64,000 nucleotides of DNA from an uncultured Desulfobulbia bacterium (GCA_964423785.1 CAYRGZ010000001.1:9782-73781), one strand, 5' to 3'. Numbered from the stretch's first letter, positions 21,090 through 33,156 are shown. Made by a program: numbers and translations. Notes: generated by a model from the sequence alone, not told the origin.

Positions 21090-21137
21090 TGGCGCGCCAG
21101 GGAGGATTCGAACCCCCGACCTACGGATTAGAAGTCC
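21090..21137 (-). repeat. attL: 48-bp duplicate of the tRNA-Arg 3' end (island boundary)
   Basis: TGGCGCGCCAGGGAGGATTCGAACCCCCGACCTACGGATTAGAAGTCC is identical to 33080-33127. Identity stops at position 49 (A vs G). Confidence 0.9.
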
Positions 21138-21248
21138 ATTCTGACGTGATTTTGCGTGATTTCGCGTGAAGCAATAACCCTTGAACTTGTCGTCGTTTTC
21201 TGCTATTCTTTCTTCATGCGACATCACTGAAAATCACCCCTCCACACG

Positions 21249-21277
21249 GTAAAAAGTGGGGACAGAGTGGGGACTGG
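21249..21277 (+). promoter_or_regulatory. Putative integrase arm-type binding site (left)
   Basis: The 29-bp GTAAAAAGTGGGGACAGAGTGGGGACTGG is identical to 32994-33022 and contains two GTGGGGAC half-sites. It lies ~110 bp inside attL, just upstream of int. Confidence 0.5.
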
Positions 21278-21356
21278 CGGGCGAAAACGGATTCGCGTTT
21301 TCATGGAATCCGTAGGTTTCCGTCCTGGGCCGAACCCCCGAGGAGACGACGGCAGC

Positions 21357-22592
21357 ATGCCCCGGTGGAAACCCACGAAGTACGAGGGCGTCCGATACCG
21401 TGAACACCCTACACGAAAGCACGGTATCCGTCCAGACCGTTACTTTGCCATCCGGCTCCAGATAAATGGTCGCCGCCACGAGGAAGGCGTGGGCTGGGAG
21501 AGCGAAGGCTGGACGGCTTCCAAGGCTGCCACCCTCCGGGCCGAACTGAAGCGAGCGGCCACCACCGGCGACGGCCCCGTGGCCCTGGCCGAGAAGCGGC
21601 GGCTGGCCGAGGAACGACGGCAACGGGAAGAGGCTGAGCGGCGACGGCGGGAACTGGAAGAAGTCACTTTTGCCGAATTCTTCCAGGACAATTACTTGCC
21701 GTGGACCACCGGCAACGGCAAGTCGGCCCGGTCGCTCCAGCGTGAACGCTCCCTTTTCCGGCTGTGGCTTGCCCCCGTGATCGGCGACCTTCTTTTCGGC
21801 GAAATCTCCCCCTTCCACATAGAAAAGATTAAGGCAACGATGCTGAAGGCCGGCCGGGCTCTTCGTTCGGTGCAGTATGCTCTGGCCCTGGTGCGGCAGG
21901 TGTGGAACCGGGCGCGGGATGCCGGCATCCACGACCTCCCGTGCCCGACCAGGAAGGTGAAGCTGGACACGAAGAAGCACGACAACCGCCGGATCAAGTT
22001 CTTGACCCGCGAGGAAGCGGCGGCCCTACTTGCGGAATGCCGGCGGCGAAGTGCAAACCTGCACGACATGGCCTTGTTGTCCCTGCATTGCGGGCTGCGG
22101 GCCGGGGAGATTTTCGGCCTGACCTGGGCCGACGTGGACATCACCCACGGCTTGGTCGTCCTGCGGGACACCAAGAGCGGCCGGACCCGTTCGGTGCCCA
22201 TGACCGAGGCGGTACGGACCATGTTCTGCGGCCGGGAACGGGGTAAGCCGACGGACCTTGTTTTCCCGGCGCGGGATGGTGGTCGGATCGAGCAGATTTC
22301 AAACGCCTTTGACCAGGCGGTGAAGGCCCTTGGTCTGAACGAGGGTGTCACGGACCGGCGACAGCGGGTTGTCTTTCACACCCTGCGCCACACCTACGCT
22401 TCTTGGCTTGTGGCGGCCGGGACCGACCTGTACACGGTGCAGCGGCTCCTGGGGCACCAGAGCATTGCCCTGACCGAGCGGTATGCCCACCTTGCCCCGG
22501 ACACGTTGAAGGCCGCGACACAAGCGCTGGAGCAGTACGTCAACGATACGCCGCCACGGCTGAACGTCGTCCCTGGAGGCCGGGGACGATGA
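21357..22592 (+). CDS. int: Tyrosine-type site-specific integrase
   Basis: ATG at 21357 follows GAGGAG. C-terminal catalytic motifs ...GLRAGEIFGLTWADV..., HTLRHTYASWLVAAGTDLYTVQRLLGHQSIALTERYAHL (R, HxxR, Y). The longer track ORF from 21267 was rejected. Confidence 0.9.
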   Translation: MPRWKPTKYEGVRYREHPTRKHGIRPDRYFAIRLQINGRRHEEGVGWESEGWTASKAATLRAELKRAATTGDGPVALAEKRRLAEERRQREEAERRRRELEEVTFAEFFQDNYLPWTTGNGKSARSLQRERSLFRLWLAPVIGDLLFGEISPFHIEKIKATMLKAGRALRSVQYALALVRQVWNRARDAGIHDLPCPTRKVKLDTKKHDNRRIKFLTREEAAALLAECRRRSANLHDMALLSLHCGLRAGEIFGLTWADVDITHGLVVLRDTKSGRTRSVPMTEAVRTMFCGRERGKPTDLVFPARDGGRIEQISNAFDQAVKALGLNEGVTDRRQRVVFHTLRHTYASWLVAAGTDLYTVQRLLGHQSIALTERYAHLAPDTLKAATQALEQYVNDTPPRLNVVPGGRGR

Positions 22593-22777
22593 AGGTCCGG
22601 GACATTATCCGGCTGATCGAGCAAGAGGGATGGGTGCAGGTACGCCAGCGGGGAAGCCATCGGCAATTCAAGCACCCTTCCCGGCCGGGGCTGGTGACCA
22701 TTGCCGGCCATCCCGGTGACGACCTGGCCCCTGGAACCTTGAAGAGCATCTTGAGACAAGCGGGGATCGAATCATGA
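22589..22777 (+). CDS. hicA: HicA-family toxin (type II TA, mRNA interferase)
   Basis: MKVRDIIRLIEQEGWVQVRQRGSHRQFKHPSRPGLVTIAGHPGDDLAPGTLKSILRQAGI is the canonical HicA/YcfA pattern. Its ATG overlaps the integrase stop (ATGA at 22589-22592). Confidence 0.88.
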   Translation: MKVRDIIRLIEQEGWVQVRQRGSHRQFKHPSRPGLVTIAGHPGDDLAPGTLKSILRQAGIES

Positions 22778-22989
22778 GAAACTTCGTGGTCATCATCGAG
22801 CAAGCAGAAGGCAACCTGTCCGCCTACGTGCCCGACCTGCCGGGCTGTGTCGCTACCGGCGCGACCGAGGACGAGGTGTTGCACAACATCAAAGAGGCCA
22901 TCGAGTTCCACCTTGAAGGTCTTGCCCTGGCAGGGATGCCCGTCCCTTCCAGCCGGGCCGTTGTCCGGGAGGTGGAGGTGGCGGCGTAG
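22774..22989 (+). CDS. hicB: HicB-family antitoxin (short form, 71 aa)
   Basis: MRNFVVIIEQAEGNLSAYVPDLPGCVATGATEDEVLHNIKEAIEFHLEG is the HicB/UPF0150 fold signature. ATGA overlap with hicA. Confidence 0.85.
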   Translation: MRNFVVIIEQAEGNLSAYVPDLPGCVATGATEDEVLHNIKEAIEFHLEGLALAGMPVPSSRAVVREVEVAA

Positions 22990-23287
22990 GGCTTGTCTGC
23001 GTTTGTTATAGGCCGAAGTTCCCTCGGTAAAAAACAAAACCTCTTCATGATTGTCGAACAACATCGAGGCCAGCGCCTAGCGCATGTGTCATTTCACGTA
23101 GTACGCCAGCAGGCAGAGGAGATGTTCGGTTGAGGACATGTTCGATATCATGGGTACTGAACTTTACAGAGTTGAGGCTGCCAATGGTTTAATTCGGTGA
23201 AATAACAACATTAAACGCAAAACCCTTCCATCCTTGGTATACTGAGCTTGCAAAATTATCCAATAATTCCAAGGAGGAATGGTCTAA

Positions 23288-31467: not shown

Positions 31468-32879
31468 TCCTTGGCGGCAGGCGGCCTGGCGTTCCATCAT
31501 GCGCTCCAGCAAGAGGGCCAGGACGCAGATTTTCACATGGGCCTCGATACGCCGGGGAAGCCAGTGGTAGACCGGCATGATCTTCAGCTGGGTGCGCTTG
31601 AGCGACCGAAAACACCGCTCGATCACCATGAGCGAGCGGTAGCCTGTGGCCGCATCCTCCACCGTGAGCGTGGGGTCGTTGGTTTCAACCACCCACTTGC
31701 CGTCGTACCGCTTCGCATCCTGGACCGCTTTGCGGTCAATCCGGAGCTTGCCCTTGTCGGTCACCGTGAGATAGGGACCGAAGCGGCGGGAGGCCAGCAG
31801 CTCCACCGCCCACTTGCGGGAGGCATCCCGGTCCTTGTGCCGGGCGAGCTCTTCTTCGAGCAGATGGACGATCTCCGCCCGGTGCTCCTGCTGCCGCTTG
31901 GCCTCCTGCGGGTTGAAGCACAGGACGTAACGCTTGCCTGTGCTCACGACGACTTCCTTGGCGAACAGGTTCTCGCTGATCTTCCGGTACCGGCCCGGGG
32001 CGGAGAGGACTTCGTCTCCGATCTCCTTGACGCTGCGCATCCGGCTGGCCAGGAGATAGGTGCCGCACGCCTTGGCGAGTTCCTTGCGGTTCCCCGCCGA
32101 GTTCATGCCGGCGTCGGCCACGAACAAGGCCCGTCCCAGGTTCCAGCCGCGCAGGTCCTTCTTGACGGTTTCGACCGTCGTGAAATCGGACGTATTGCCG
32201 GGGAACACCCAACTCTTGACCGGGAACCCCTCGCGGGTGACAGCCAGGGCCACGACCACCTGGGGCGCCCAGAAGCCCTCCTTGGCATGACCATACCGGC
32301 GCAGTTCGTCTTCCTCGTCCACCATGAACGAGACCGTGGTGGTGTCGTAGAAGATCACGTCCACGGTGAGGTTCATCAGGTTTGCAACCTGAAAGAAGAT
32401 CTCCCGCTCGATCTCGGCCGCATGCTCGGCCAGTACGTTCATGGCCTCGTACATCTGCCGCAGCTTCAGGTCCTGACACTCCGGCAAGTACACCGTATCG
32501 AGCCACCGCTCCCAGACGCCGAGCTTCGATTCCGGCTGACAGAGCCGATTGGCCACCATGGCCAAGAGCGCCTTGTCGTACGGCACGTTCTTGCTCCGGG
32601 AAAGCCGACGTATGGTCTTGCCGATACCGAGGCGTTCCCAGAGGACCGCCGTAGCCACGACCGTGCCGTACTCCAGGGTCCTCTTGAGCTTGACGTCCTT
32701 GGGCAGGCAGCCCGCTCGCAGTCCTCGTCCTTGGCAGGGTCGATCACCTCGACACCGCAGACCCGGGCGATGGAGCGGCAAAGCCGGACCAAGGCCTCGC
32801 GGTCCAACTGATCGGCGCGGCCGAAGTTGCGGAACTTTCTATCCGGTTGAAACGACGAGAAAAAATTTCGCGGCCCCAT
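31468..32879 (-). pseudogene. IS1634-family (IS4-like) transposase, frameshifted and 3'-truncated
   Basis: The body ...FYDTTTVSF...ALFVADAGMNS...YRSLMVIERCFRSLKRTQLKIMPVYHWLPRRIEAHVKICVLALLLERMMERQ is IS1634-type. The N-terminus (MGPRNFFSSFQPDRKFRNFGRADQLDREALVRLCRSIARVCG...) lies in another frame (ORF 32466-32879). The C-terminus is replaced by the istB fragment. Confidence 0.7.
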
Positions 32880-32946
32880 AAAAGTCGACCTACAAACCGA
32901 AAACTCTGGCCAAACCGAAAACTCCGGCCGGACAAGGACAAAGTAT

Positions 32947-32982
32947 AGCCCCTCTCGGTGATACCGGAAGGGGCTTTTTTTG
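32947..32982 (+). terminator. Possible Rho-independent terminator (orphan)
   Basis: AGCCCCTctCGGTgatACCGgaAGGGGCT followed by TTTTTTT. No intact plus-strand gene lies upstream, so it may be a relic of island cargo. Confidence 0.35.
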
Positions 32983-32993
32983 GTTTTCGTGCC

Positions 32994-33022
32994 GTAAAAA
33001 GTGGGGACAGAGTGGGGACTGG
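32994..33022 (+). promoter_or_regulatory. Putative integrase arm-type binding site (right)
   Basis: 29 bp identical to 21249-21277, located ~60 bp inside attR. Confidence 0.5.
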
Positions 33023-33079
33023 GGACCGAAAAGGCGAAAAGTCCTTAGCGGAATAGGGCTGCTAACTCCTTGATTTTAT

Positions 33080-33156
33080 TGGCGCGCCAGGGAGGATTCG
33101 AACCCCCGACCTACGGATTAGAAGTCCGTTGCTCTATCCAGCTGAGCTACTGGCGC
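33080..33156 (-). tRNA. tRNA-Arg (anticodon TCT)
   Basis: The reverse complement GCGCCAGTAGCTCAGCTGGATAGAGCAACGGACTTCTAATCCGTAGGTCGGGGGTTCGAATCCTCCCTGGCGCGCCA folds by hand into a cloverleaf. It has a 7-bp acceptor stem, D arm GCTC/GAGC, anticodon loop CTTCTAA, T arm GGGGG-TTCGAAT-CCTCC and an encoded CCA. Confidence 0.9.

Follow-up and report, generated by a model that had tools for sequence, protein, structure and literature searches.

A tRNA-Arg(TCT)-integrated genomic island with a predicted type I Zorya operon in an uncultured Desulfobulbia bacterium

Introduction

What brought 12 kb of accessory genes to lie between a DUF523 gene and mutM in the genome of an uncultured Desulfobulbia bacterium? 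The segment is part of a 64 kb stretch of DNA (GCA_964423785.1 CAYRGZ010000001.1:9782-73781), which we call the window and along which all coordinates are counted. An earlier note, made from the sequence alone, proposed an integrase-mediated insertion at the 3′ end of a tRNA gene. Our analysis leads to the same answer and extends it. The segment is best explained as an element that integrated into tRNA-Arg(TCT), that carries its own integrase and a Zorya cargo, and that has lost modules its relatives retain. We put the probability of this reading at about 0.88. An exact repeat, all sequence features that the Islander scheme asks for and a positive empty-site comparison make the segment a textbook tRNA-integrated genomic island.

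Results

An intact tRNA gene and its displaced 3′ end bound the island

The window holds a single tRNA gene, tRNA-Arg(TCT), found by ARAGORN and by Rfam (RF00005, 72.4 bits); an Rfam scan of the entire window returned nothing else. The 3′ 48 nt of this gene, from 3 bases into the 5′ strand of the anticodon stem to the encoded CCA, occur a second time, base for base, at a start-to-start distance of 11,990 bp (Table 1). Both coordinates of this perfect repeat are those of the earlier note. With up to 3 mismatches allowed, these are the only 2 copies in 64 kb, and 0 are expected from 100 shuffles. Identity ends as abruptly as the note had claimed: position 49, the first past the repeat, is a mismatch (A vs G), followed by two chance matches, and the outer side is without identity.

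The Islander scheme (Hudson, Lau and Williams, PMC4383910) describes tRNA-gene-integrated islands, including an anticodon-centred 'A' class. The island resembles this class in each essential respect. An intact tRNA gene stands at one end, and the cognate 3′ fragment lies downstream, displaced on the 3′ side and in the same orientation. Between them lies a tyrosine integrase gene outside the Xer and integron classes (62-93 bits against XerC/XerD and integron-integrase models, whose cut-offs are 265-335). The identity block runs from the anticodon stem-loop, and the split gene is restored by the island. Unlike in Islander islands, the integrase gene lies at the fragment end and not beside the intact tRNA gene; this placement is constant across the integrase family, and nothing essential differs. 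The gene starts 219 bp inside the left repeat, in agreement with the roughly 220 bp given before. Its product has the residues R248, K273, H341, R344, H367 and Y376, which are invariant across a 33-member alignment. The left repeat had been called the displaced original tRNA end. The standard model of insertion supports this, but the direction of the exchange is not readable from two identical copies.

Composition sets the island apart from its flanks to a modest degree. The comparison of GC content and codon usage that had been proposed gave 58.5% GC for the island vs 60.7% and 62.5% for the flanks. The AT-rich patches noticed before correspond to lower GC at 22990-23836 (51%) and in the zorAB stretch (52-53%). 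GC content at third codon positions (GC3) is clearly lower in zorA and zorB (0.58-0.59) than in int (0.77) and the flanking genes (0.74-0.80), and by tetranucleotide distance the stretch at 28-32 kb is the farthest from the flanks. The flanking genes are as previously named, a DUF523/DUF1722 gene on the left and mutM on the right, and profile searches found each of the contents listed before: hicAB, Zorya and three insertion sequence (IS) remnants.

A relative carries the empty site

The earlier note had suggested a search for an empty site, in which DUF523, tRNA-Arg and mutM would be neighbours. Such a site exists. The order on contig L148 (ENA ERZ23495365) is mutM, tRNA-Arg(TCT), 245 bp, DUF523, DegT and a GT9 glycosyltransferase, and it recurs on two NCBI contigs (L149 and L150) that are identical or near-identical to L148. 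The segment is absent from the same site in this genus-level relative, whose MutM is the nearest other MutM, 69% identical to that of the window. By blastn, L148 is collinear with the window on both flanks, from 43343 to 33078 and then from 20898 to 17268, and window positions 21138-33079 are unmatched. A scan of a genome collection with the DUF523 protein gave relatives at ≤60% identity, none of them with a tRNA near the gene.

Same-species contigs were picked by identical MutM, integrase, DUF523 or HicA proteins. They come from four samples (JGI 3300009408, 3300023503 and 3300023444; Logan SRR5189948), are 99-100% identical to the window and all have occupied junctions.

The backbone occurs at a second tRNA-Arg gene

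A hydrothermal-vent metagenome contig (L154) carries an integrase identical to that of the window at 404 of 412 amino acids. Positions 1026-2952 of this contig, covering core, P′ arm, int, hicA and hicB, are 97.7% identical to window positions 21090-23012. The core (1026-1073) is the 3′ 48 nt of tRNA-Arg(ACG), identical to the native gene in a genus-level relative (L152). It matches the core of the window at 42 of 48 positions, and 2 of the differences fall in the anticodon loop (2 of 7). The neighbours are NosL-type genes. Because a 97.7% identical backbone lies beside a tRNA-Arg(ACG) fragment in a different host, we take it to be the same element inserted at another tRNA-Arg gene. This gives direct sequence evidence that the backbone of the island is, or lately was, mobile. 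One integrase at two tRNA-Arg cores suggests target switching or relaxed core specificity.

The outer flank of the core in L154 looks like the P arms of the element, and a tandem array was considered. We rejected it, since this flank is homologous to the native tRNA-Arg(ACG) terminator in L152.

The native tRNA-Arg(ACG) of L152 (8234-8310) lies upstream of a PilZ-CCP-mutM block that also flanks tRNA-Arg(TCT) in the window. When window positions 33063-33157 were compared with it, the first 17 bases downstream of the L152 gene were similar to the P-arm-proximal sequence of the island.

The integrase belongs to a tRNA-targeting family

Over 2,000 proteins are related to the integrase at E ≤ 1e-20. 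Most are 50-60% identical, and those with a name come from Solidesulfovibrio, Syntrophobacteraceae and Desulfohalobiaceae. We surveyed 80 metagenome loci (L068-L147) recovered with the family alignment. Both island ends are present in 4 of the 80, with repeats of 32-55 bp that are the 3′ parts of tRNA-Asn, tRNA-Lys, tRNA-Arg(CCT) and tRNA-Phe. These four siblings share the layout of the window: int follows the tRNA fragment at a distance of 150-250 bp, and the intact tRNA gene is on the opposite strand, 5.6-10.5 kb away. Their GC is 4-14 points under that of their flanks.

The same arrangement holds across the family. In 57 loci the sequence before int is long enough to judge, and in 50 of them an antisense tRNA T-arm falls between -450 and -60 relative to int, against 0 of 57 for the same strand as a control and 5 of 937 background windows. 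The identity blocks of the integrase-family islands all start in the anticodon stem-loop, and hence the family belongs to the anticodon-centred Islander class (PMC4383910).

A typical member of the family is 5-12 kb long and has, in order, int, sometimes an HTH_3 repressor, an AlpA/Rdf-like protein, a primase-helicase and variable cargo. The primase-helicase is of the Toprim+AAA_25, the PrimPol or D5_N+DUF3987, or the DnaB type. Defence genes (PDC-S05, S06, S23 and AriA) are found among the cargo. Typical members thereby share the gene set of P4-like elements, of elements like phage-inducible chromosomal islands (PICI) and of other small integrase/AlpA/primase-helicase elements. Unlike these, the island in the window retains just int and the attachment (att) sites, and its integrase is without the P4-type DUF4102 domain.

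Capsid-hijacking or packaging genes were found neither in the island nor among the 25 commonest families per library for 123 cargo proteins of relatives, a survey that rare cases could escape. Relaxase, origin of transfer (oriT) and type IV secretion domains are likewise missing from the island, and a single relaxase occurs among the 123 proteins. By its own gene content the island is no satellite, no integrative and conjugative element and no mobilisable element.

One locus of the survey (L074, about 207-900) has, upstream of its integrase relative, several copies of the 30-nt sequence GTTCACTGCCGCATAGGCAGCTGAGAAAAC, about 300-360 bp apart among the matches seen and similar to a CRISPR (clustered regularly interspaced short palindromic repeats) repeat.

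The attachment site has repeats on both arms

We reconstructed attP by joining the right end of the island to its left end. On the P′ side, tandem repeats begin 112 bp after the core and end at 140 bp, about 80 bp before int begins. On the P side they lie 54-86 bp before the core, with a third partial copy. The two arms share an identical block of 29 nt, each with two GTGGGGAC words 11 bp apart, and the 4 copies of this word in the window are all in the two arms. In 5 of 5 islands (that of the window and four siblings), tandem repeats with an 11-bp period occupy about -80 to -57 and +112 to +140 relative to the core. The words differ in each sibling (TGGGGGACA, GGGGAGAG, GTTGGACA and TCCTTCCA); the distances are as in the window.

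As a sequence pattern, then, arm-type repeats flank the core on either side. They resemble the sites of lambda-type heterobivalent integrases: short, tandem, direct, at fixed distances and with an element-specific word. The pattern is what would be expected of arm-type sites that co-evolve with, and are bound by, the arm-binding domain of the integrase. As in lambda-type systems, int begins shortly after the P′ repeats, and the integrase may thus regulate its own gene. What sets the family of the island apart from lambda-type integrases is its arm geometry, with two copies in tandem on each arm and an 11-bp period, and its accessory sites. One candidate for such a site, possibly bound by an accessory protein, is the tandem GTGATTTYGC beside the core, which is conserved in L154. 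Sites for integration host factor (IHF) or excisionase (Xis) were not identified. A scan of viral contigs with the arm repeats gave 0 matches, and we have not seen the element catalogued as viral.

Two hairpins accompany the right end. The stronger, just inside the P arm, probably is the terminator that closed the plus-strand genes of the element. A promoter and terminator consensus scan of the window gave counts not above those of shuffled sequence and missed this hairpin itself. The second, weakened, lies in element-borne DNA just downstream of the regenerated tRNA gene. In the siblings the corresponding DNA folds into a hairpin with a T-run (-21 to -23.5 kcal/mol), like native tRNA terminators. 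The first 17 nt of this DNA in the window are similar to what follows the native tRNA-Arg(ACG) in L152. There are hints that the tRNA-like core and the terminator of the element were captured from a tRNA-Arg(ACG)-type gene as in L152.

Table 1. Features of the island, its borders and related sequences. Positions refer to the window unless a contig is named.
Feature	Position	Strand	Evidence or remark
DUF523/DUF1722 gene	19980-20942	-	left flank
attR core, displaced 3′ 48 nt of tRNA-Arg(TCT)	21090-21137	-	exact repeat of 33080-33127, oriented as the intact gene
Tandem GTGATTTYGC x2 beside core, P′ side	21146-21165	+	sequence inspection
P′ arm repeats, 2x (G)TGGGGAC, 11-bp period	21249-21277	+	direct repeat family D3
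int, tyrosine integrase, 411 aa	21357-22592	+	PF00589, E = 2.4e-32
hicA, toxin, 62 aa	22589-22777	+	PF07927 on record for identical product
hicB, antitoxin, 71 aa	22774-22989	+	PF15919, E = 1.9e-11
Breakpoint, end of homology to L154, L158 and L159	22991-23012		blastn ends at 23012, 22991 and 22991
IS4-family transposase fragment, N-terminal third	23288-23785	+	NF049925, profile 2-149 of 449, E = 3.4e-45
zorD, SNF2 helicase	23837-26701	-	PADLOC ZorD 1019 bits, nearly full profile; SNF2-related domain and Helicase_C
zorC, EH signature domain	26701-28140	-	PADLOC ZorC E = 4.2e-117, profile 2-459 of 462; PF15611
zorB, MotB/OmpA-like	28137-28940	-	PADLOC ZorB E = 5.2e-88; OmpA domain
zorA, MotA/ExbB-like, long coiled-coil tail	28937-30715	-	PADLOC ZorA type I models E = 1e-40; PF28082 ZorA-like_t1 on record for identical product
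IS21 istB fragment, C-terminal half	31090-31485	-	NF038214, profile 112-230 of 232; PF01695; in-frame fusion to transposase upstream
IS1634-family transposase	31497-32781	-	NF033559, E = 6e-107; C terminus truncated at ~31497
Strong hairpin and T-run just inside P arm	32947-32982	+	fold energy -19.1 kcal/mol
P arm repeats, 2-3x (G)TGGGGAC	32994-33026	+	direct repeat family D3
Element-borne DNA just downstream of regenerated tRNA	33030-33079	-	weakened hairpin terminator, fold -10 kcal/mol
Intact tRNA-Arg(TCT)	33080-33156	-	ARAGORN, Rfam RF00005; attL core = 33080-33127
mutM	33247-34068	-	right flank
AlpA-like gene, examples in relatives	L103 2051-2284; L124 12256-12543; L154 3775-4041; L158 2110-2343
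~105-bp repeat, copies 1-5	5941-6043, 14471-14573, 15180-15290, 15359-15462, 18348-18428
~105-bp repeat, copies 6-10	18475-18585, 18633-18716, 57696-57791, 61282-61385, 61393-61490

A HicAB pair is part of the backbone

A HicA-domain gene directly follows int and is adjacent to a HicB-domain gene. The stop of int overlaps the start of hicA in an ATGA, as does the stop of hicA with the start of hicB (4 nt), and therefore int, hicA and hicB are expected to be translationally coupled. HicB is of the short 71-aa form without a recognisable DNA-binding domain. The pair stands within the conserved backbone in four independent contexts.

Toxin-antitoxin pairs stabilise integrative elements, for example MosAT of SXT. 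The island is similar in that its conserved backbone includes a type II toxin-antitoxin pair; it is unlike MosAT-type systems in that HicAB is coupled to the integrase gene itself. By analogy, this pair may hold the island in place.

The cargo is a predicted type I Zorya operon

Type I Zorya consists of ZorAB plus ZorC and ZorD (Hu et al. 2024, PMC11946911). The island has all four genes, co-oriented and contiguous, with overlapping stop and start codons that predict translational coupling, and each PADLOC profile is covered near end to end. The start of zorD is probably the ATG at 26701, which forms a TAATG overlap with the zorC stop; 26776 and 26596 are alternatives. From these features the cargo is predicted to be a complete type I Zorya anti-phage operon. 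Compared with type I Zorya (PMC11946911) the operon is divergent. The nearest ZorC that we found is only 43-46% identical, and in the one context examined the closest relative sits in an ordinary and unrelated defence neighbourhood. For both reasons the source of the Zorya genes is untraceable.

The IS remnants lie on either side of the operon. On the right, 31090-32781 of the minus strand is one open frame of 563 aa, in which the IS1634-family transposase continues as the C-terminal half of IstB. Exactly at the junction of the two (31497), L063, a contig of the same JGI sample, leaves the window sequence for an ISL3 element (L063 from position 12562). Its IS copy is about 90% identical to the window, with the differences concentrated in the IS. 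Population heterogeneity or assembly across IS copies are possible causes of this divergence.

Did Zorya arrive with the element? A small int-hicAB element, complete with regulatory and replication genes that have since gone, may have integrated first, and Zorya may have come later through IS transposition or recombination, replacing the interior. The bracketing of the operon by IS4 and IS21/IS1634 remnants points this way, as do the GC3 of zorA and zorB relative to int, the other IS arrangement of L063 at 31497 and the end of homology to intact relatives right past hicB. The slot after hicB, however, is variable in intact relatives too (unrelated genes of 216 aa in L154 and 231 aa in L158), so that a later event is not required. 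Moreover, the three IS fragments are of different families and hence form no composite transposon, members of the family do have defence cargo, and no ZorC closer than 43-46%, which could betray a source, was found. We rate such a two-step origin close to, if short of, even odds.

The island lacks modules that its relatives carry

Sequences 99% identical to the window (L158 and L159) follow it as far as 22991, 2 bases after the stop of hicB, and differ from there on. What lies beyond this point in the relatives is missing here. Clustering of the open reading frames (ORFs) downstream of int showed an AlpA/Rdf-like protein of about 85 aa in 49 of the 80 loci, with a primase-helicase next in many of them. 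Its motif reads WPS..V.R....F.GG.....LANLDS.G.GP......GRKV.Y....L..WL. The gene is present in the closest relatives, L154 and L158 (hidden Markov model (HMM) E ~1e-29), after the variable gene that follows hicB. Pfam and PHROG searches with the protein were without match. Its profile matched structures of an AlpA-family regulator (8c3t, E = 0.009) and of RdfS (8dgl, E = 0.06) weakly. With moderate confidence, we regard the protein as a candidate excision or regulatory factor of the family.

A six-frame HMM search of the window did not find this gene; the best match (E = 0.7) lies outside the island. This agrees with the earlier note, in which no excisionase gene was evident. The AlpA-type regulator and primase-helicase that together mark satellites are both present in relatives and both missing from the island. 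Remnants of sibling modules were not detected in the window by tblastn with all sibling cargo ORFs, and no replication or transfer genes remain in the island. Judged by its gene content, the island is probably stranded without an excision factor. The suggestion that it may be immobilised thus gains from the missing AlpA-like gene and modules; it remains a suggestion, since integrase, cores and arms look intact.

The island could still be mobile if its excision were helped by a factor of the host, by one that another element provides in trans or by an unrecognised small ORF. The catalytic residues of the integrase are intact, the two cores agree at 48 of 48 positions, and the arm repeats share a block of 29 nt without a mismatch. 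Against these stand the missing family-typical gene, the loss of replication and transfer genes and the same-species contigs, which are occupied in all four samples. We consider continued mobility unlikely.

Discussion

How would the island have come about? We propose that site-specific recombination joined the attP of an 11,990-bp element to tRNA-Arg(TCT) and so brought the element into the chromosome, with its own heterobivalent tyrosine integrase as the catalyst. Since the anticodon stem-loop is where the shared sequence begins, the crossover would probably lie in the anticodon loop. In place of its own 3′ 48 nt, the tRNA gene would have received the identical copy of the element together with the hairpin downstream of it. 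The original 3′ end would have been displaced by 12 kb and would now lie beside the integrase gene. The conserved backbone of the element would consist of the core, the P′ arm repeats, int, hicA and hicB, with the type I Zorya operon as cargo. The AlpA/Rdf-like gene and the primase-helicase would have been lost, likely through IS-mediated deletion or replacement from just after hicB. Efficient excision would then probably be gone, and HicAB, coupled to int in translation, may add stability. Of this scheme, the repeat, the gene content, the empty site, the architecture of the family and the absence of the AlpA-like gene are observed; we infer where the crossover lay, in which order the events came, that mobility was lost and how Zorya arrived, be it with the element or by later insertion between IS copies.

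Several observations weigh against this account or parts of it. The relative with the empty site is just 70-80% identical to the window in nucleotides. A conspecific empty site was not found, and 5 of 5 same-species junction contigs are occupied. A degenerate scan of metagenome contigs for four junction types, including those of attP and attB, gave 0 matches; it also missed the known occupied JGI junctions and so does not count against excision. Overall GC of the island is close to that of the flanks, and the GC3 of int looks host-like. A simple loop-overlap model fails to explain how a 98% identical integrase comes to lie beside two tRNA genes with 2 differences among the 7 positions of their anticodon loops. 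As for stranding, the excision-factor role of the AlpA-like protein is drawn from weak profile matches, and no damage is apparent in the integrase, in either core or in the arm repeats. Excision by some integrases needs no dedicated factor, so that an island lacking the AlpA-like gene is not necessarily immobile.

The distance of the sole empty-site relative also makes it conceivable that the segment is ancestral and was deleted in that lineage, the repeat being a stray tRNA fragment or a local duplication; this is very improbable, given that the fragment has the orientation and position that integration requires and lies beside an integrase gene, that 50 of 57 family members have the same arrangement of fragment and int, that the backbone stands at another tRNA gene in another host, that both cores have arm repeats beside them, the arrangement of a split attP, and that the contents are all accessory or IS-derived. 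Integration into tRNA-Arg(TCT) is supported by the same points: the architecture of the family and the backbone at the tRNA gene of another host both back the insertion at the tRNA 3′ end that was first proposed from the sequence alone.

Tentatively, and with the odds somewhat against it, we read the island as a stranded member of a Desulfobacterota family of 5-12 kb elements that target tRNA genes and combine an integrase with a primase-helicase. Such elements would act as shuttles for defence cargo, and this one would have been 'domesticated' by loss of the excision gene and by an int-coupled HicAB lock. We know of no prior description of this family as such. Possible hallmarks would be the fixed attP geometry with element-specific arm words, the element-borne tRNA terminator, the AlpA/Rdf-like protein that neither Pfam nor PHROG models, and the use of one integrase (98%) at two tRNA-Arg isoacceptor genes.

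The island is real but ordinary, and it leaves the current understanding of genomic islands and of Zorya unchanged. Its value is that of an example, at the nucleotide level, of how type I Zorya may have reached a poorly studied Desulfobulbales-like lineage of Thermodesulfobacteriota, known here from vent-type metagenomes, on a tRNA-targeting element that was later fixed. Three things can be reused: the attP/attB pair as reconstructed here, together with its candidate arm sites; an integrase lineage that covers several tRNA targets and includes one integrase at two tRNA-Arg genes; and a candidate excision-factor family that is absent from current domain libraries. Software for finding islands and bioprospecting for integrases are potential uses.

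Outside the island, the window contains a dispersed repeat of about 105 bp. Its ten copies are 75-88% identical to the reference copy, lie on both strands and often form adjacent pairs; none is inside the island (Table 1). It is probably a host-specific intergenic repeat or a miniature element.

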